NCBI GenBank assembly: GCA_951406725.2
Contig: OX597816.1
Location: 92,814,001 to 92,878,000, forward strand
Source: Octopus vulgaris
Taxonomy: Eukaryota
Length of the DNA stretch: 64,000 nt
Direction of reading: 5' to 3'
Position numbers and translations under genes: made by a program. The notes beneath the pieces are model-generated. The model was not told where the DNA came from and ran no database searches. It was given only the letters and a program-made list of their open reading frames with translations. Shown one piece after another: positions 25,877-63,122 of this stretch (the stretch's first letter is position 1; each line of letters starts with the position of its first letter).

Positions 25877-27147
25877 CGAGGGACGTTCAATAAGTAATGC
25901 CCCTGACCCACTTGCATTTGTTTGATCTAGCTGAAATTTTGCATGTGCAATCATTTATATCTCTATAGATTAAGCGGCAAATTACAGCTCTGAACCAATT
26001 GTGGTTTCTGATTTACAGGTGTTTGAACTGAGCCAAGTGTGAAATGGAGCCTGTTGAGTGATCCAGTTTTTGTATTTGAAAGGACGCACACCACGCGAGT
26101 CTTTTGATGAAATGAAAGTAACTTATGGTGATGATGCCCCATGTAAAACGTTGGCATCATGAATTCAAACATGGTCGGAACTCTGTGGAAACAGCTCCCA
26201 GATCTGGTCGCCTCCCTTCTGCCATTGATGAGGCATCTGTCCATCAAGTTGAGGCTGCCATTTTCGAAGATCGACGCACAACTATTCGCCAAATAGCCCA
26301 TGAGGTCAAGATTAGTACCGGGTCTGTGGAAACTATCATTCATGACCATTTGCATATGCAAAAGGTGTCTGCCAGATGAATTCCCAGGTTGCTCACACCT
26401 TTCCAGAAGCAAGAACGTGTCGAGTGCTCAAGGATGAATTTGGAAATGTGCCAAGAAGATGAGTCAAAATTTTCCAAAAGACTGATTACACAGGATGAAA
26501 CCTGGGTCCATCACTATGATCCAGAGACCAAAGCCCAGTTAATGCAGTGGAAGCACCGTGACTCACCTCCTCCAAAGAAGGCAAGAGTGCAGCCCTCCGC
26601 TGGCAAGGTCATGCTCACAGTCATCGGGACCAGGATGAAGTAGTGATGACAGATTTCCTGGCAAAGGGTACCACAATTACAGGAGCCTATTATGCTTCAC
26701 TTTTGAAGAAATTAAGAGAAGCTATCAAAATCAAGAGGCGGAGCAAGATCAGCAAAGGCATCCTCCTCCTGCAGGACAACGCTCCGGTTCACAACTCGCT
26801 TGTCGCCAGATCAGAAGCACAGGCGTGTGGCTATGAACTCCTCCCCCCATCCCCCTACTCGCCTGACTTTGCACCCTCTGATTTTCACCTCTTTCCAGCC
26901 ATGAAGTTGTTTTTGAAAGGAAAGCGTTTCCCAGATGATGCAGCCTTGATTTCTGAAGTCATGTCGTGGTTGGAGGACTAAGCTGGGGTCTTCTACAAAA
27001 ACGGTCTCCAGAGCTGCATCAAACGATGGGAGAAATGCGTAACTCTGGGTGGTTCCTATGTAGAAAAAGACTAATAACTGTGCCAAGTTTCGTTGCTCTA
27101 CTGCTATGGGAAGTGGGTCAAGGGCATTACTTATTGAACGCCCCTCG
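25877..27147 (+). mobile_element. Full-length mariner (DD34D) DNA transposon
   Basis: 37-bp TIRs CGAGGG(A/G)CGTTCAATAAGTAATGCCC(C/T)TGACCCACTT with 2 mismatches. TA lies to the left (25875-76) and TT to the right. Length is 1271 bp. Confidence 0.97.
26044..27074 (+). pseudogene. Disrupted mariner transposase
   Basis: Motifs PRSGR, ITQDETWVHHYDPE, LLQDNAPVH, YSPDFAPSDFHLF (34 residues between the last two catalytic D) and GSYVEKD* are present. In-frame stops at about 26377 and 26979 and frameshifts disrupt it. Confidence 0.95.
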
Positions 27148-33429: not shown

Positions 33430-35590
33430 AAATGCTTCTGACATAAATTTCACAGACACAATTGACATTTTATGTAGGATATTTAGTGAGAAAACATTGT
33501 TACTCAACACACATTGCATGTGTTTGAACACAGAAAAGCAACGACGAAGACTTTACCATATATGCAGGTAGAATGAACAAAGAGTGCTAGAGATTTAAAC
33601 TGGATAAACGAACTCCAGTCTCGTTCATGTGCCTGATTTTGGGGACGCAGAAGTCAGAACGAAAATTCTCACATAGCTGGAGATGAACCAGGATATAACT
33701 CTCCAGAAACTGAAGAGTGATATTAAAGTAAGCCACGACACAGAAAAGAAAAACGCAGAGATTGTTTACAGATAAAAGAGGTGTCGAAGAGTCAGAAGGC
33801 AGGTTAAGTATTTCACAAAATTCACGATAAAAAGTAGGAGATAAACCCCTGTATTGCTTGCGGTGGTAGACACCTGAAAAAAGAGTGTTCGTTCAAAAAA
33901 ACAAAGTGTTTTCATTGTGGGTATATAGAACACATTAAACCGAATTGCAGAACTAAGATGACAAAAAATTGGACTAAACGAGAAAAAAAAGAATAGTTTG
34001 TCATCAGAGAAAAAAAAAGTTTGTACAACGAACAGAAAATTTATAAAGGTGTGAATCGAAACCACTAGTGTCAAAATGCAATTAGACACAGGTAGTGGCA
34101 TCACTACCATAAATGAAGGAACTTGGCGACAAATCGCTAAGTCGAAATTATTTAAATCAAATAAAGTAGCATATGGTGTTACAGGAAAGAAATTATATTT
34201 TATTGGCGTATATATTTGCAATGTAACTTTACGAGATGAAACGAAAAGGACAATAATTTATATGTTGAAAAAAATTACTAAACCTATTTGGCACAAAATG
34301 CATGGAATTATTTAAAATGTGGATAGCCCCATTAGTGTTCTCTGTGAAAATGTAGTCGGCATAGTTAAAATTTCGAACTGAGACAAAAAAATTAAAAAAT
34401 TGTTTCCAAATGTTTTTTTTAAAGTATTAGGCTGTTGCACTAAAACAAAAGCGAGGATCGCGGTTAAAGAAAAGGCGATGCGTGTTTTTAGGTTCAAATG
34501 GAACGTACGTTTGCGGTGTGGGACCAGGTCAATAAAGAGCTAGAAAGACTAGAAAGTCTAGCTATAATTGAAAAAGTCGGCCATTCAAACTGGGAAGCTC
34601 TGACATGTAAAAAAAAAAAAGTAATAAAGTGAGAGTGAGCAGACTTTTCCACTGGATTAAAAGACTTTTATTGAACATAATTATCCATTACCAAGCCCAG
34701 AAGTTTTCTCAAAACTTTTCCTTCATTTAGAGGAAAACTTTTTCTTGAAGTTAGACCTCTTGGGGAGCTATCTATAGATACAGGTAGAGGAAGATTGCAC
34801 ACACTTTTTAACAATCAACACACACCGTGGATTGTATAAATTCAAGCGGCTTCCTTTTGGAGTAAAAGTGGCAACTGCCATATTCCAGCAAGTGATGAAG
34901 CAATGTTAAATGACTGCAACTTCACTATCACTTATCTCCATGATATTTTGATAAAGAGTGAGTCAGTAGAGCAACACTTCGAACATATTAAAAAAGTATT
35001 CGGAAAAATAGATGAACACAGGTTTAGACTGACAGAGGAAAAGAATGAATTTTTGATGAAAAAAATCAAATATTTATGTAAGTAATTGACAAAAGGGGAC
35101 GAAGGCCAGACCCATCAAGGGCAATGATGGCAATATGGAGTATGCCTCCCCCAACAAACGTCAAATTATTACAAGTATTTTTAGGTTTGGTAAATTACTA
35201 TCAAGTATATATTCTAAACGTACAAAACACAAGGGCTCCATTAAACGAGCTGTTAAAAAGGGATGCCAAATGGTTTTGGTCAAAATATGCCAGAAGGCAT
35301 TTGAGGAACTAAAAAGCAGGTTAACTTCAGACTTGTCGCTTACACACTTCAATCCGAAGTTGGAAACGATACAGGCAACAGATGCTGGTGAATACAAGGT
35401 AAGTTCCGTACACCTACACAAAGCTGAAGATGGCAGCCAAAAAGTTATAGGTCACGTGTCAAGGACGCTATTGCCAGCAAAAAAGAATTATAGCTAAATT
35501 GAAAAAGAGGCATTGGTGATTATATTTGACATAAAAAAGTTTCACAGATTTATACATGGTTGACTGTTTAGACTACAAACAGACCATTAT
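33430..35590 (+). mobile_element. Decayed Ty3/Gypsy LTR retrotransposon gag-pol fragment
   Basis: Knuckle relic CFHCGYIEH, protease MQLDTGSGITTI (34076), RT YKFKRLPFGVK and YLHDILI, FLGLVNYY, and RNase H TDAGEY...HVSRTLLPAKKNYS*IEKEAL...TDH. Domain order is PR-RT-RH with many stops. I saw no integrase or LTRs. Confidence 0.92.
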
Positions 35591-46308: not shown

Positions 46309-46351
46309 ACATACATACATACATACATACATACATACATACATACATACA

Positions 46352-46404
<53 letters not shown>

Positions 46405-46502
46405 ACGTAGATACACACACACACATAATATAGATAATATATACATGTGTTTTTCAGAAAAATTATATTAATGTGTCCAACTGATTAAAATTCTGTTTAT
46501 TT

Positions 46503-46590
46503 GTGCGGCTGATGATGGCTCTTCATTTAAATTGATGTAATGATTGCCTTGTTCAATTAAATGGAGCCGCTTGAAACGGGTGTACTGCAT
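46503..46590 (+). ncRNA. Type I hammerhead ribozyme candidate within an about 175-bp repeat (46456-46627)
   Basis: Stem I GUGCGG/CUGCAU, core CUGAUGA (46509-15), long stem II UGGCUC..CAUUUAAAUUGA/UCAAUUAAAUGGAGCCG, GAAA (46573-76), stem III ACGGGUGU, and a GUA cleavage triplet ending at 46584. Confidence 0.7.
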
Positions 46591-46633
46591 CATTTCTTGA
46601 TATCCTGTTGCTTATCTTGATTTTGTATGTGTG

Positions 46634-46688
<55 letters not shown>

Positions 46689-46699
46689 GTGCATTTATA

Positions 46700-47450
46700 G
46701 GTACAGGACGTCACCAACTGTATAAGCAACATGAAGTACAGGAACAAACGAATTAAATACATAAACAATGACAGAAAAATTGAAAACGGGACAAGTAAAC
46801 ACAGAAAACGACCCTTCATCAGTTGTTGGCTGTCTATCTACTCCTCATTTCGAGCATTCACTGACAATATGAGTCTTTAAAGACAGTTGCTCCCATATGG
46901 GTACATGGAACATGAACTATTCTTTCGAACAACGAAAGACACAAATGGAAAACAAAACAAACATAATGAACGACCCTTTATCAGTTGTTGGCTTTCTCTC
47001 TAGTCTTGTATTTCGAGCATTTAACAACAATATACGTTTTCGATAAAACAGTTGCTCCTGCAAAGCAAATTAAATAAAATTTGGGATTTTGCAGAGGGTC
47101 AAAATAGGTAACACAAGCAGGACAATGAAAACATAAACGAGGTTGTGGTGGTGAACGCGTAAATCAAGCTAGGACAGGAGACAAACAAGAACACGTCTTC
47201 CTTGCTCCAGCTACAGTGGAGAGAAAGAAAGAAAGATGGCCGATGGTCACGTGGGAGTCACATGAGTAAGAGAGGAAGAGAGTGACAGAGTAATAGAATT
47301 GAATAAGGGGAGAAGAGGAGGTAAAAGAAGACGAGAGAAAAAAGAGAGAAAAACGAAAGAGTAAAAAGATCGTATAGAGTGGGCATTAGAATTATTAAGA
47401 TAAAACTTACTTGGAAAAGGATTCGTGGTGTTCAATCATATAATAATATA
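46700..47450. mobile_element. Non-coding repeat between microsatellites with an internal about 90-bp duplication (possibly Penelope-like)
   Basis: AACGACCCTT(C/T)ATCAGTTGTTGGCT...TTTCGAGCATT...ACAGTTGCTCC occurs at 46807-46894 and 46969-47057. A purine-rich tract starts at GGTCACGTGGG, as it does at about 28707. Confidence 0.5.
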
Positions 47451-47549: not shown

Positions 47550-48665
47550 CTCTTTTACTTGTTTCAGTCATTTGACTGCGGCCATGCTGGAGCACCGCCT
47601 TTAATCGACCCCGGAACCTATTCTTTGTAAGCCCAGTACTTATTCCATCGGTCTCTTTTGCCGAACCGCTAAGTGACGGGGGACGTAAACACACCAGCAT
47701 CGGTTGTCAAGCAATGCTAGGGGGACAAACACACACACACAAACACACACACATATACACATATATATATAAATTTATATATGAGGATAATATCGATATT
47801 TAAGTGTCGAAATTATCAAGTGGCCAGCATGAAAGAAATACCTTACAAAGGTAAAAAAATTTTTAACAATTAAAAATGAGGGTGTCTAAAAGACACCAAC
47901 ATGCCGAAATAGCAGTCGAAACTCTGACTATAAAACCACGTTAAATGTTCATATCGCACCATGAGGTAAAGCGGAGGGACAAAACATACAGGCAAAAATT
48001 ATTGAATAATTCAAGATCCAAGGATTTCTGGTTCTGCTTTAGATAAGCTTTACCGTCATCAATTGAATATATCAAGGGTACATAAATACAGATATATATA
48101 TGCACAGCAAACGATATACTTACATATACGAGCGTCGTACATACATACATATGCACGTATGGACACAGCCAGTTTGAATCGCCCGCCAAATCACCGCATT
48201 TTTTTTACCTTTGTAAGGTATTTCTTTCATGCTGGCCACTTGATAATTTCGACACTTAAATATCGATATTATCCTCATATATAAATTTATATAATTCGTT
48301 ATTATATTCACTGCGGTGCTTATTTTAACCATATCGTACTTATGCGGTGATTTGGCGGGCGATTCAAACTGGCTGTGTCCATACGTGCATATGTATGTAT
48401 GTACGACGCTCGTATATGTAAGTATATCGTTTGCTGTGCATATATATATCTGTATTTATGTACCCTTGATATATTCAATTGTTGACGGTAAAGCTTATCT
48501 AAAGCAGAACCAGAAATCCTTGGATCTTGAATTATTCAATAATTTTTGCTTGTATGTTTTGTCCCTCCGCTTTACCTCATGGTGCGATATGAACATTTAA
48601 CGTGGTTTTATAGTCAGAGTTTCGACTGCTATTTCGGCATGTTGGTGTCTGTTAGACACCCTCAT

Positions 48666-48732
<67 letters not shown>

Positions 48733-54730: not shown

Positions 54731-57103
54731 TGTATACATAAAAATATTAAAAAAAAACAAAGATGAAATGAATATATGATTATCTCAAATATTTCCAAAC
54801 ATAAAAGAATGGTTACAAAAACAAAAAGAAATCAAACTTCAAGCTCTCTCTCTCTTTTTTTTTTTTTTTCTTGTCATTCAAAACTGTTTCACAGAAGTGA
54901 AAACTTGATAATTTTCTGTTGTTTAAATTCTTCATATTTAAAGATTCAAGTATATAATATCAGTTTTTGATATGCTTTATAAATTTTGGGTGTATAGCAA
55001 AATATAATTTGTTTAAAGTGCAGTACAAGTAAAGAAAAATATTATTGGGAACCACTGCATCAGATTTATGAGTGTATAGTAAAGTTTGCTTTCATGTTCA
55101 CAGATTCATTTAATAAACACTTCAAACTCTGATAAATAACCTTGTACCCAGGAAAATGAAATCCTTATTATGCTGAATTTAAATGTAGCCTTTTCTGTTT
55201 GAAATAGCAATTTCATTTTATTCCCTATATAATTCAATATATACACTAGTCAGCTGGGTTCTACAAGCAATAATAACACCATGTCTAGTTGAAAACTCTT
55301 TTAGAAAACACTTTTAGTTACCAATTACCAATAATAAACTAGATTCAGGGAATGGTTGAAATAAATTGGAAAAAAAAGTTTGTTTAAAAAGTCTTGTAAA
55401 TAGAATGAGGCAGCTTAACAAGGTATAGCTTTTCAGAAAACTTCCTTCCATTAAATTGACATTCTAGTCTGACATGGATTAAGGAAGTGATCACTGGGAT
55501 GATAGAATAGAGAAAAAAAAAATAAAGTTGGTCTGTCATGTGTTATAATGGAGTTGGGCATGAAAGAATTTGTTGCAGAGATGATTACCTGAAAGTGACT
55601 TTACTTATCTGGAATCTGTCCAGTTCTATCAATGGAAGTGCTGACAAAATACTGGTCTTGACATGTTATTTAAAATAGCAGTTCTTCAGTGATCTCAAGG
55701 TCGTTGCTAATCAAATAAATGAAAGTGTCTTTCCCCTTTTCTTGTTTTCAAGTCAACCAACTCTCTAGGTGCATTCTTTATCATACAGTGTTTGAGGAAA
55801 AAAAAAATTAAAATAACAGTATTTTGATAGTGAGCAGAAAGCCCAACATTCTCGAAAAATCAATTAGAAGTAAATAAAACTATTATAACTAACCATAAAT
55901 ATCTCTTTTATGTCTTTATGCCAAGTTTTCCATTTTTCTCCTGCAACACACTGACCCTGATAATCAATTACTCCCATTTGAGACTCCATCTTTTCAAATA
56001 TTACCTTCCCTAAAAGAATACATTATATATACTTGTACACACCCACGTACATACAAACATATAGGCATATGTGTACACACACACATATCAACATGTGTAT
56101 GCATATATGTATGTGTGTGTCTGTATGCAATAAGATAGAATAAATAAGTTATACACTTCAGTCTCAAAAGACTTACACTTTAGATTATAGAGCTGGGTAT
56201 GAAAATAAGTTACATAAATGAAATTAATAGGCATAGCCTTGTGGTAAAAATTTTGCTTTATAAACATGTTTTTCTGGATTTGAGCTCACTATGTGGCACG
56301 TTTGACAAATGCCTTCCACTGAAGACTAGGGTTTTCTTTTGAGAAAAAATGTAGTAGATATAAACAGTGCAGGAAGTACTCCTGTATATAGCTTCATCAT
56401 TTTCCTCATTGTTGTTGTTGTCATTGTTTTATATGTTTTCCTTGCTGGATGACCTAATAGGACATGATAAATTGGAGGATGATGTCTTGCTCTAATGTTT
56501 TAGTTTTTACATGATTTCTGGGGTTGGGTATCTTTCCTAACATCAACTACTTTACAGAAGATACTGGGTGCATATCTTCATGACACCAGCATTATAGAGT
56601 CTGTCTTGTTCTCAACACGATGAAACATGTTTCTTTAGCCCTGCTTTTCTACAGCTTGATTTAATTTACTAATTGCTTACACAGAATATACTGGGAGATA
56701 TTTGTGACACTAGCACTAGTGTGATAACTTTGTAGCTCACAGAGGAGAAAAGAGAGGCCCTGTGAGTGAAAGAGTATAAGTTAAAATATTATTAAAGAAA
56801 CAGATTTATCATTGTTGGAAGATGGTAGAGGAAAGAGTAACATAGGTAACAGTTTTGGTAGTTGTGGGAATGGATAAGACAGGTATAGTAAAAATGCAAG
56901 AGTAATGTCAGAGTTTAGTGGGAAAGGGAGGAGGTGGACAAAGTGATAAGGATAGTAGGTGGGATGTGTAGGGGGAAATCAGTGAGGGGTGTGGGTTTGC
57001 TGTAATAGCAAAAATATGAATTTCTTCCATCTTCTTACTCTGTTAAAATATTTAAGAAAAATTATATTAATGTGTCCTACTTGTTAAAAAAACTCTATAT
57101 TTT

Positions 57104-57191
57104 GTGCAGCTGAAGATAGTACTGCATTTAAATTGATGTAATGATTGCATTGTTCAATTAAATGGAGCCACTTGAAACAGTCGTACTGCAT
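57104..57191 (+). ncRNA. Second hammerhead ribozyme candidate of the same repeat family (57056-57230)
   Basis: Stem I GUGCAG/CUGCAU, CUGAAGA (57110-16), long stem II, GAAA (57174-77), stem III ACAGUCGU, and a GUA triplet ending at 57185. The flanks are homologous to 46456-46627. Confidence 0.7.
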
Positions 57192-57244
57192 TACTACTTG
57201 ATATCCTGTCACTTATTTTGATTTTATACATATGCATATATATT

Positions 57245-57246
<2 letters not shown>

Positions 57247-57295
<49 letters not shown>
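57247..57295. repeat. (GA)n microsatellite
   Basis: Seen directly in the sequence. Confidence 0.95.
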
Positions 57296-57298
<3 letters not shown>

Positions 57299-58010: not shown

Positions 58011-58214
58011 ATGAGAAACATAGTGCAGTGAGTGAGAAAACAGATGATAGATGGGAGGGAAATGTGAAGGCACAGAACAGGTGTAGTGGGTGGGAGGAAA
58101 AGTGGCGGGGAGATGTGAGGGTATAGAGTAGGCAATTGGTAATGGGGCAAGTGTACTAAAGCACTACTTTACTGAATATTTTGTCAAACTGGCACAAAAG
58201 TCAGGTATTTTACA

Positions 58215-60405
58215 ACACTAAATATGACCTTCTGAGATTTCCTTGTCATCTCCTTTGTCAGATTCAATATCTTGAGATCATTTTGCACCACTTCTCCCAC
58301 TTCCTTAGTACCATTCATTCTGCATATTCACCACTTGCTCATGTCATTGTCATCCTTCATCCACATCATGTGCCTATACCATCACAGTCTTCTCTCTACA
58401 GCTGATTCCTCTTATACCCAGTTTGTATTCATACTTTGTCATTCATGCATACTAATGTAGTACAATTCAGCTAAGCATGTTCATCTCTTCCCTTTGTAGG
58501 CCAACCACATTCGGGATTCATCTCTTACTTCACACAAAGGCATCATATGATCTGCTCTTGATGTTGAGGAAAAAACCTTTTATTTCCAGTAGTGTTAACG
58601 ACTCCCTGAAATTCCTACATTTTTATTCTGATTACCACACTTTCAGAACATCTTCCCTCACTGCTAATTTCACCATCTAGGGAACAAAATTATCAGCTAT
58701 GAAGCTTTCCAGGCATTTGAAAGAATCTGTTATCTGAGCATTCATCCTGAAGGTTGCCTTTGTACTGTTGTTGCATGTGAAACCTACCTTTATTGGTAGC
58801 TTGCCTGCAATCCCGCTACATCTCATGCATGCCCATTGTTAGCACACCTATGGAATTTCTACTGACTATTTTTCTGCCAACATAGCACTGCAATTTTCTT
58901 GCTGCTATAAGGGTTTGGTTTCCTTTTTATATACTAAAACCATTGTTTTTGCTAAGTTTGCTTTAAAGCCCATCAATTCCAGGTTTTAGTTTCCAGTCTG
59001 AAATTTTTGTTTAAATTTTTCTATAGATTTTGTCATAAGGACTAAATCATCATAGGAGTTCTGAAGTATAACCAGTATTAAACACCTCTGTTATGGCTTG
59101 GAGAATTATAATAAACAAGAAAGTGTTGAAGACTGAGCTCTGATGAAACCCTACAGGCACACTGAAATCATCACTAAACTCATTGCTGATTCTCACATTG
59201 CTGACTGAACCTCTTCACATGATTTATTTGCCCTTCACAAGCTTTTCATCTGCTTTTAGTTTCCTCAGTGACTGTCAGATCACAAAGCAAAGAATTCTGT
59301 CAAAGGCCTTCTCCAGTGAACACTGAATATGGAGGCTTACTCCTAGCTATGTACTTCTTTTTGAGTTGTCTCCCAAGATATATAATATCAGTGGTACCTT
59401 TCTCTAAGCTGTAAAACATCTAGGCAATCTGGTTTCTGATTACTTTTGCAACAATACTTATTCTAACCTTCATAATCTGGACCAACAGTGTGATACCCTT
59501 GTAGCTTCCTCTCCCCAATCCATCTCCCTTGTCTCTGCTGTAGGCATATGATACTATAATGCTAATTTTTGTGTATGGCACCTTCCTCTCTTGTCTTATT
59601 TACTATTTGAGTGACTATCTTGTATCCTACTTTACAAAATATTTTAAGCAACTCAGTGACTATCTCTGATAACTCAGCAGCTTTTTCTACCTTCTTAACC
59701 CAAATCATTCTATCTACCATACTGCCGTCAACTTGGATGGAAAGTCCCATTGGTGGATCTCAATGGGTTAGACACTTCCTCCTTCATGTATCTTCCACTT
59801 CTGGCAGCCTCTCACTATTAAACTTCCATATCTCTTACTCATTTTGTATGAATTTCTTCCCCACCCAAAATCTCTATTTTTCTCTAGTTCATTGTCTAGC
59901 ACTACAGAACATTTCTTATCCTCACAATGCAAAACGTGCAAACTTCTACTTCTCTGCTCCTTTCTTGCCTTGCTTTGTAAACCTGATGTTTAGCTTCTTT
60001 TCTAGTTATTTGAGATTCTTCTCTACTACCCAATCTCTACTATCCCTTTTCTACACTTGATTCTGTTGTTATGACACTGTCTTTAATTGTTCCACTGCTA
60101 CATCACATTGTATTTGTCTGGGACCTTGCACCAAACATAGGTTTGGTCTGTAACCTCCAGCAGATCATCCCATAAAAACTATCACTTTTGCTCTCCCCCC
60201 CCCTTTCTACTGTTATAAGTGTCAGTTGAGACCTTTTTTTTTTCTCTATGACTAAGAGAGGGTGAAGTAAGATTTTTTTAAACTCCTAGATCTTCCTTCT
60301 TCAAAATGCCTTTGTTTCTGAGTCAGAGTAGCCCTTATTTTGAAGTCACCAACTACTAATTTATGTTGGGAGGTACCTTCTTCGTTAGGGAATGACTTGA
60401 CCTTT
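58215..60405 (-). mobile_element. Heavily decayed RTE-clade LINE (endonuclease end, RT and C-terminus)
   Basis: Minus-strand relics read VKSFPNEEGTSQHKLVVGDFKIR (APE endonuclease end), KAAELSEIVTELLK, GSYKGITLL, LEKAFDR and GFKANLAKT. Confidence 0.75.
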
Positions 60406-61814: not shown

Positions 61815-63122
61815 TACCTTCTCCTTAGTTAGACAACTATAGAGGCTTTTAGTTGAGAGAATAGAACTACATGCATTTGTTGATTTGAAGAAAGCTTTTG
61901 ACAAAATTCCACAAACTGCAATCCTGAAGACACTAAGAAAACTGTGTGTAGATGAATGGCTAATGAGAATAATGAATGCCACATACAGGGGTGGTGTCCA
62001 CAAAGCAAAATTTATCAATGAGTTCAAGCAAAGAATTTAGTGTTCAATTAAGTGTCCATCAGGGCTTGGCTCTCAGCCATCCAATTCATTATAATTCTCC
62101 TAGCCACAACAGACAAATTTCATGTCTAGGTATCTTTGATAATTCCTGTAAGCCACTATCCTAGTTTTATCAACTAAATCAGTTAAAAAGTAAAAGGAAA
62201 TGTTCCAGATATGAAAGGGGAGAACCAGGAAGTCTAAACGTAAAATGAGCAAAAATAAAACTTAGCTGAGAAAAAAAAATGCAAAACACCTGCTAATACC
62301 TGGGAAAATAGCTGTGCTTGATATGTAGAAAAGATATTGGCAGTGATTTTATACTGTGTGCCCTGATTAAACTATAAATGCCTAAGAGATTCAGTGGAGC
62401 CTCAGATAGGTTGAAAGAGAATGATTTTATATGTAATAGGTACAGAGGTGTAGTTAGCAATTTGAGCAACCTTGAAATTAATTCTTTCAAATACCCAGGA
62501 TATTCCCTAAAAGTAGATATGGCTTCTGTTAACTGGGTGACTTATTCAACTATGAAGGTGATGTTCTAAACATGTAGCTAAAGAAAGGACAGAGTGGAAA
62601 AAGTTGAGTCGCTTGTTGCCTCTGCTTCCAATGAATGTATTTTTCTCTGAGTGAAAGGCAAATTGTATGATACTTGAGCACAAAATATTATTTAGTATGG
62701 TAGCACAACATGGCTAATTAATGGGGAGGATGTGCGAAGGCAGCAAATAAATGAAGCAAGCATGCTCCTCTGGATGTATAATGTTAGTGCATGAATGGTG
62801 GAGCACAAGTGAGCAAAAGGAAATACTAAGACTAGGTATAAGAGAAATCAGATGTAGTGTGCAAGAAAGGAGACTGTACTGGTTCGGCCAAGGAATGGAA
62901 AGGAAGGGTGACAGTTAGGTAAAGGAGTCCCAAATGGAATGAACCTGCAAAAGATGAAGACCAAGGAAGATATGAAAGACATAGTGAAAACTGATCTTCA
63001 AATGTTGAACCTCATTAAGAGGACACTGATTGATTACAATAAGCAGTGAAACACTGTGTTGGAAAATACCCATGCAACTCATACAAAAATGGTAAAACAG
63101 ATGAAAAATATTGATGATGATG
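61815..63122 (+). mobile_element. Decayed RTE-clade LINE (RT to 3' end)
   Basis: Reads AFVDLKKAFDKIP, EFSVQLSVHQGLALS, RCSVQERRLYWFGQ and RPRK, and ends in (GAT)n at about 63113. Confidence 0.85.

Follow-up and report, generated by a model that had tools for sequence, protein, structure and literature searches.

The window, by which we mean the whole stretch of 64,000 nucleotides of Octopus vulgaris DNA that was analysed, contains two diverged copies of a dispersed repeat. These are quite probably the decayed 3' ends of a Penelope-like retroelement (PLE) near or of the Hydra clade, with a hammerhead ribozyme that would cut after GUA only in dimers paired through stem III. A preliminary description had proposed a dispersed family with a type I hammerhead at its centre, of the dimer type known from Penelope-like elements, and this proposal is supported by the variation across the family and by the match of the stem II junction to published PLE hammerheads. 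The repeat family is of a known kind and apparently undescribed, its odd feature being an arm of 57 nt between the two halves of the ribozyme core.

Two Copies of the Repeat in the Window

The two copies (Table 1) both lie on the + strand and share 83% identity across about 190 bases (BLAST, E 4e-52) at an offset in register of 10,601 bases, in agreement with the diverged pair about 10.6 kb apart that had been recognized before. Each copy is solitary within the 64-kb window. Their shared 3' end lies 40 nt past the predicted cut in both, and the TA-rich microsatellites previously noted beside the copies are found at both 3' ends. Of the non-microsatellite positions of the window, 4.2% have a TA-rich run within the next 12 nt. 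Among the loose ends of aligned contigs that were listed (runs X1, X2, X10 and X15, described below), those of X1 and X15 past 46622-46624 are TA or CA runs, and those of X1, X2 and X10 continue 5' of 46452. The consensus of the X10 loose ends agrees by eye with copy 2 at 57021-57050 in 28 of 30 letters. Because the loose ends before 46452 match copy 2 in this segment, copy 1 is 5'-shortened, and the repeat unit is at least 205 bp, longer than the about 175 bp first given for the element. Each of the two window copies has changes of its own, and selection probably no longer acts on them.

Table 1. Coordinates of the repeat copies, their hammerhead parts and their flanks in the window.
Feature	Position	Strand	Basis or remark
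Copy 1	46452..46624	+	Alignment to copy 2 by BLAST, and loose ends; 5' end short relative to family
Stem I, 5' strand	46503..46508	+	Pairs with 46585-46590
Core C3-A9 (CUGANGA)	46509..46515	+	Sequence; N7 is 46513
Stem II arm, 57 nt	46516..46572	+	U opposite U, three pairs, 1x2 internal loop, AU-rich helix, apical hairpin
Core G12-A15.1 (GAAA)	46573..46576	+	Sequence; absent from listed variable sites
Stem III self-complementary segment, 8 nt, dimer type	46576..46583	+	Majority letters and common variants
A17	46584	+	Predicted cut on 3' side; hammerhead numbering
Stem I, 3' strand	46585..46590	+	Pairing
3' tail, copy 1	46591..46624	+	After stem I
TACA/TA run	about 46313-46401		Upstream of copy 1
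TA/TG microsatellite	46625..46692	.	Adjoins copy 1 at its 3' end; a likely target site
Copy 2	57021..57225, at least	+	BLAST and X10 loose ends; true 5' end may be further upstream
Copy 2 hammerhead	57104..57191	+	Core 57110-57116, stem II arm 57117-57173, GAAA 57174-57177, stem III 57177-57184, A17 57185
TA-rich run and GA microsatellite	57226..57296	.	Adjoins 3' end of copy 2

The Hammerhead Core and Stem I

All 12 core nucleotides of the hammerhead (C3, U4, G5, A6, G8, A9, G12, A13, A14, A15.1, U16.1 and H17) are present in order in both copies, and stem I has 6 bp in both and is open-ended, as in type I. A pattern scan bears out the CUGANGA, GAAA and GUA segments and the 6-bp stem I described for the two copies, and the difference at N7 (U versus A) and the change between G.U and A-U in stem I are as stated. 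We take A17 to be 46584, with cleavage on its 3' side, from established hammerhead numbering, and the cuts predicted after 46584 and 57185 agree in position with the sequence. Only copies 1 and 2 match the type I pattern (stem I of at least 5 bp and a 15.2-16.2 pair) when both strands of the 64 kb are scanned; a looser type I pattern has two further isolated matches, at 629 (+) and 11580 (-). In 200 order-2 simulations the number of matches expected by chance is 0.17 per window with a stem I of at least 6 bp, and 0.045 when a short palindromic stem III is added.

When the monomers are folded, the hammerhead of each copy is about 8 kcal/mol less stable than the minimum-energy structure, and a non-hammerhead hairpin is favoured. 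The probability of stem I in the folded monomers is 0.01 and 0.11-0.16, and the folding z-scores of the repeat are unremarkable (-1.07 to 0.56). The Rfam search that had been proposed was run, and the hammerhead models gave zero matches at E up to 10, both over 44-60 kb and with each copy alone. Rfam microRNA matches in the window proved to be microsatellites. A weak match to the C/D snoRNA model snoU105B (E 3.6) was rejected, the D box being unmatched and the C box being broken by the G that most of the family has at N7.

The Stem II Arm and Its Junction

The unusual length given for stem II, about 57 nt, holds at 57 nt in both copies, and its base requires another register. In the earlier register GGCUC was paired with GAGCC and CUU was bulged out before GAAA. 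This bulge is unneeded, since three direct pairs under U46516/U46572 (46517-46571, 46518-46570 and 46519-46569) fit both copies. At the junction U faces U, and the N-G-C next to it pairs with G-C-N'; above these pairs 46520 is opposite 46567-46568 in the internal loop, and the AU-rich helix that follows is long. In this corrected register copy 2 differs from copy 1 by the changes from G.U to A-U and from C-G to U-A. Folding of copy 2 gives the three corrected pairs probabilities of 0.92-0.97 and the earlier register 0.00, so that the base of stem II, thought to be eroded in this copy, is intact; folding of copy 1 alone gives 0.63 for the earlier register versus 0.37 for the corrected one. A G10.1-C11.1 pair beside the hammerhead core is usual, not universal. 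Its absence had been correctly noted, U being opposite U there, but a G-C pair stands two positions out from the core and shows no variant among the 40 of 44 variant rows listed.

Within the arm, the polymorphic sites of the family fall on 4 of 15 unpaired versus 2 of 42 paired positions in the corrected register (P 0.04), and on 2 of 13 versus 4 of 44 in the earlier one (P 0.6). In the corrected register the polymorphic positions 46520, 46567, 46568 and 46543 are all unpaired, and the two polymorphic paired sites, 46517 and 46571, are each other's partners. The covariation in stem II is suggestive only, because the shares of these partners are unequal (U at 46517 in 58-63%, A at 46571 in 12-33%) and because the C-G to U-A change of copy 2 may be due to chance, 46569 lying in a CpG and 46519 being absent from the listed variants. 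In each of the four runs the summed depth is greatest at 46530-46561, and no other stretch is shared as well among the subfamilies as the long arm.

Stem III and the Dimer Arrangement

The stem III segment of the family majority, ACGGUCGU, pairs with itself at all eight positions, and the common single variants ACGAUCGU (13-20%) and ACGGCCGU (6-17%) also self-pair at eight of eight. The loopless near-palindrome of the preliminary description is a near one in the window, where each copy self-pairs at six of eight positions, whereas the palindrome of the family majority is complete. In the monomer, stem III would have 2 bp with a loop of only 2 nt; in the majority dimer it would have 8 bp. The segments 46576-46583 and 57177-57184 cross-pair at seven of eight positions (-6.0 kcal/mol), against six of eight for each with itself, as is expected if both decay from one palindrome. 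A dimer arrangement through a palindromic helix III is described for PLE hammerheads in the available parts of PMC4209133 and PMC6765202. The source RNA is likely to cleave as a dimer or with protein; cleavage of copies 1 and 2 themselves in vivo is rather unlikely.

Size and Variation of the Family

The family was surveyed with Logan contigs from 4 of 24 runs, aligned to 46402-46630 at 80% likeness. Three runs, X1, X2 and X10, with three organism labels, are presumed DNA and X15 is presumed RNA. The contigs aligned to copy 1 number 3,477 in X1, 3,386 in X2, 3,018 in X10 and 336 in X15, and with thousands of sequence variants aligned under three species labels, the family must be large. The maximum of the summed depth, 1.06-1.37 million, lies at 46546-46553; divided by the 30-60 of a single long contig, it corresponds to about 18,000-46,000, which is a rough figure and not a true copy number. 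The family size is roughly 10^4 copies, as an order of magnitude only.

Variation was counted over the 88 ribozyme sites from the 40 of 44 variant rows listed, and 11 of these sites have a minority share of at least 10%. Such sites make up none of the 12 core positions and 10 of the 31 non-core positions within 6 nt (P 0.02); any listed variant row is found at 1 of the 12 core positions versus 17 of the 31 non-core neighbours (P 0.006). The preliminary description had made its reading depend on a core more conserved than the flanks, and the sparing is found in the family (P 0.02), but the two copies alone, with 11 differences in 88 sites, give only P 0.18. N7 (46513) is G in 54-73% and A in 18-27%, with U also present; C3 is changed to U in 0-8%, and the other core letters of CUGANGA are absent from the listed variable sites. 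That the motif is a true hammerhead by descent is hardly in doubt.

In stem I, 46503 is G or A in the family and each pairs with the opposing U. Because 46507 is A in 97-100% of depth, the G.U pair of copy 1 is a private change. Two variants, each reaching 15% in X1, break pairs of stem I: G to C at 46503 and G to A at 46505. In a diverged subfamily the 5' loose ends keep CUGANGA and have U before the core where the window has G, and the 3' loose ends keep GUA and have A after the cut where the window has C; 46585 C to A occurs at 3-7% in all four runs. This suggests a swap of a G-C pair of stem I for U-A, the two halves having been seen on separate molecules. The X15 contigs show no pile-up of starts or ends by which expression or cleavage would be evidenced. 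Eight X15 contigs run past the usual 3' end (46624) into about 50 non-microsatellite letters that are absent from the window; this extension could be the optional 'tail' of 30-40 nt found in PLEs. Exact-pattern scans gave 0 matches in viral contigs and 0 in metagenome contigs, and two matches in GTDB genomes were rejected as the same 22-letter chance match, with bacterial sequence on either side that is unlike the element.

Relationship to Known Elements

The comparisons that follow draw on the available parts of the cited sources. File S2 of Craig et al. 2021 (PMC8557442) tabulates Hydra-clade PLE hammerheads, with rows Penelope-1 to -18_HM, Hydra-1/2_Ajap and Hydra-1_Crog. Counted by eye, 14 of the 26 Hydra-clade rows (25 families), called canonical by the authors, have a U facing a U where stem II joins the core; the second stem II pair is G-C in all 14 and the form N-G-C/G-C-N' is found in 12 of them (PMC8557442). 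The octopus repeat shares with the Hydra-clade PLEs the type I core, the U-U junction, the palindromic stem III, the 3'-terminal position and (TA)n, into which nearly all Hydra-clade families insert (PMC8557442). It differs in the spacing of the core halves, 57 nt, which exceeds the 12-26 nt of the Hydra-clade rows by more than a factor of two, and in the stem III segment, which has 8 nt and not 9-10 nt (PMC8557442). Ten of 24 Hydra-clade families end 30-60 nt past the cut, with a median of 70-88 and a range of 30-355 nt, so that the 40 nt of both octopus copies are inside the range and below the median (PMC8557442). The octopus has a Hydra-clade PLE, Hydra-1_Obim, whose ribozyme is different in sequence from that of the repeat (PMC8557442). 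The motifs of the repeat family are absent from the available part of the PMC8557442 supplement, and the source element was not located there. A PLE origin of the repeat is very likely, and membership of its source in the Hydra clade is somewhat favoured.

[quoted passage not shown] The search for an RT or GIY-YIG partner, which had been asked for, found none within the window: Pfam gave no such frame beside either copy (all 147 frames at 40-62 kb), and the 30 short frames on the + strand 5' of copy 2 likewise contain none. This absence is not decisive because truncated copies would lack such a frame. Pfam coverage came to 297 of the 433 frames (at least 45 aa, low complexity removed), namely every frame (147) of the 40-62 kb region plus, from the 286 elsewhere, the 150 longest. 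The copies may be intronic, as had been suggested; no host exon was found in these 297 frames, where the only matches were to mariner, gypsy-type RT/RNase H and weak ones. Two weak matches, Syndetin_C (E 0.005) and C2orf69 (E 0.009), were rejected because by eye they have no exon-like borders.

Other hammerheads share single features with the repeat. PLE-X1_sMoe of Selaginella also has a long insert in stem II, with 54 nt between the core halves by eye, but this is an endonuclease-less plant element with a 28S rDNA target and unrelated sequence, and the table marks its hammerhead as deviating (PMC8557442). The minimal metazoan PLE hammerheads (Cervera and de la Pena 2014, PMC4209133) are likewise of type I with a palindromic helix III and a dimer model, and occur mostly as solitary copies in variable families, as here. 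In their consensus helix II is short and only one extra base precedes G10.1-C11.1, whereas in the octopus repeat the G-C pair is two positions out and the arm is long (PMC4209133). The repeat departs from the descriptor of these minimal ribozymes, CUGANGAH G...C GAAA with a short helix II, by the 57-nt arm and the U before GAAA, and has the palindromic 15.2-16.2 and loop 3 of the same descriptor. The axolotl retrozyme HHR_Amex2 has U.U at the base of helix II, as does the octopus repeat.

PLEs make up 6.83% of the O. vulgaris genome according to PMC13282606, in the available part of which ribozymes are unmentioned. Cephalopod hammerheads in print are the 235 Rfam matches in giant squid (PMC6962438) and otherwise the octopus rows of Craig et al. 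(PMC8557442), as far as these sources were available. No published description of the repeat family was found; Repbase, Dfam and the O. vulgaris Zenodo library may list it, as could Lunse 2017 and the supplements of PMC7229834 and PMC4209133 (file 1), which lie outside this search.

Proposed Origin and Alternative Explanations

PLEs carry such hammerheads close to their 3' end, and those of the Hydra clade target (TA)n (PMC8557442). In most cases a PLE insertion is truncated at its 5' end and has a single terminal repeat; retrozymes are derived from pLTRs (10.64898/2026.07.22.740005). The PLE protein nicks AT-rich DNA and reverse transcription starts inside the RNA (PMC11167929). Under the proposed mechanism, a Hydra-like source element, either coding or a short passenger, would be transcribed as tandem RNA, in which two hammerheads would pair via stem III and cut after GUA. 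The RT/GIY-YIG protein of a PLE would then nick TA-rich DNA and begin to copy the RNA close to its 3' end; copying would stop early and leave many short 3' ends bearing the ribozyme. Selection would act on the source elements. Published PLE hammerheads show weak cleavage, a need for protein, or dispensability in vitro (PMC4209133, PMC11167929): the anole hammerhead cleaves only with protein and is dispensable for insertion in vitro (PMC11167929). In Xenopus, eight of nine hammerhead dimers failed to cleave (10.64898/2026.07.22.740005).

The best surviving alternative, though improbable, is that the copies are monomers of a tandem non-LTR retrozyme, spread through self-cleaved and circularised RNA. 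Animal non-LTR retrozymes are also non-coding, a few hundred bases long and provided with a type I hammerhead (PMC7229834; 10.64898/2026.07.22.740005), and their families hold many dispersed monomers and derive from PLE pLTRs (10.64898/2026.07.22.740005); the type I core, the dimer-type stem III and the unit of at least 205 bp agree with this. However, retrozymes are defined by tandem arrays and circular RNA, whereas both window copies are solitary and no head-to-tail tandem joint is present among the 13 joints listed, a weak test in view of a unit that extends 5' of the aligned stretch. The 3' end of the repeat is also fixed at TA-rich runs and is not permuted.

Less probable again is derivation from the octopus Naiad PLEs, as their short passenger or relic, in place of a Hydra-like PLE. 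Naiad_Obim and Naiad_Ovul insert in (TA)n, and by eye their 3' ends share GCAG-CUGAUGA-UGG and GUA-CUGC with the repeat (PMC8557442). Seven of the shared letters are the hammerhead core itself, however, and in the Naiads the GUA and GAAA segments precede the CUGAUGA segment; six further motifs of the repeat are unmatched in the available Naiad sequences, with one match elsewhere in an unrelated context (PMC8557442).

An elaborated version, in which the family is non-autonomous, its long arm docks the PLE reverse transcriptase, and same-strand copies pair via stem III and cut host transcripts to yield a 10.6-kb piece, is given little credence. A protein-binding role of the arm is a guess, and neither a new mechanism nor an effect on host RNA is indicated on present evidence.

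It is highly improbable that the repeat is a SINE-like element in which an internal pol III promoter is followed by a hammerhead, as in the Schistosoma Sm-alpha repeats. Such elements are described (PMC6765202), and the repeat is like them in being short, dispersed, high in copy number and free of an ORF. The window has no tRNA gene, no match to the consensus of the A or B box of pol III was found in either copy or in the 350 bases upstream of copy 2, and copy 2 shows no target-site duplication of at least 8 bases. A chance likeness, in which an ordinary hairpin or a snoRNA-derived repeat would lack any ribozyme history, could appeal to the absence of Rfam hammerheads, the unremarkable z-scores and the snoU105B match, but is scarcely credible given the concentration of variation on N7, unpaired sites and palindrome-preserving changes, the snoRNA boxes that are broken or unmatched, and a stem II junction identical to that of published PLE hammerheads (PMC8557442).

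Significance and Other Features of the Window

With this repeat, octopus genomes gain a large hammerhead family that is apparently undescribed. Such families are missed because the 57-nt arm defeats the Rfam models and the short spacers of published hammerhead searches (7-17 nt, or as much as 50 nt where half cores are sought). Identification of the source element would make the family a natural set in which to study covariation at the U-opposite-U junction, and would allow the still debated purpose of PLE hammerheads to be tested.

By eye, the 3' ends of Naiad_Obim and Naiad_Ovul contain every letter of the hammerhead core and three perfect stems in a non-circular order, and that of Naiad_Ovul is marked merely 'HHR_half_core' (PMC8557442). 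The order is a 6-nt 5' strand of stem II, the cut-site segment (UGGUA, CUGCCC), one base, GGUGUC GAAA CCA, and then GGGCAG CUGAUGA (PMC8557442). G10.1-C11.1 is present in these ends, A9 is unjoined to G10.1, and the order is outside the six of Eckert et al. 2023, as far as available. Judged from their letters, the Naiad ends may represent a hammerhead in permuted order, in a clade that is said to have none, which, if cleaving, would be more surprising than the octopus repeat.

Several other repeats are present in the window. A peptide translated from one of its common repeats matches three proteins, two of them named Octopus bimaculoides, as suits an octopus sequence. Right downstream of copy 1 and inverted to it, another repeat on the - strand occurs as two direct copies, 46764-46893 and 46928-47058, with 74% identity. 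In each copy CGAAA stands about 27 nt ahead of a word resembling CUGAUGA, which is intact at 46822; this repeat is possibly the terminal repeat of another PLE. At about 58200-60200 on the - strand, decayed frames of a non-LTR reverse transcriptase are recognizable by eye, which we take to be RTE-like; their fragments have no Pfam match. Pfam identifies a broken mariner-type transposase at 26122-26978 (+), a broken LTR-type RT/RNase H at 34840-35494 (+) and a weak RT fragment at 61843-62037 (+). In a recent inverted duplication at 47766-48669, the matching segments are 47872-48199 with 48669-48342 (99%) and 47766-47859 with 48293-48200 (100%); a fold-back insertion or an artefact of assembly could account for it.
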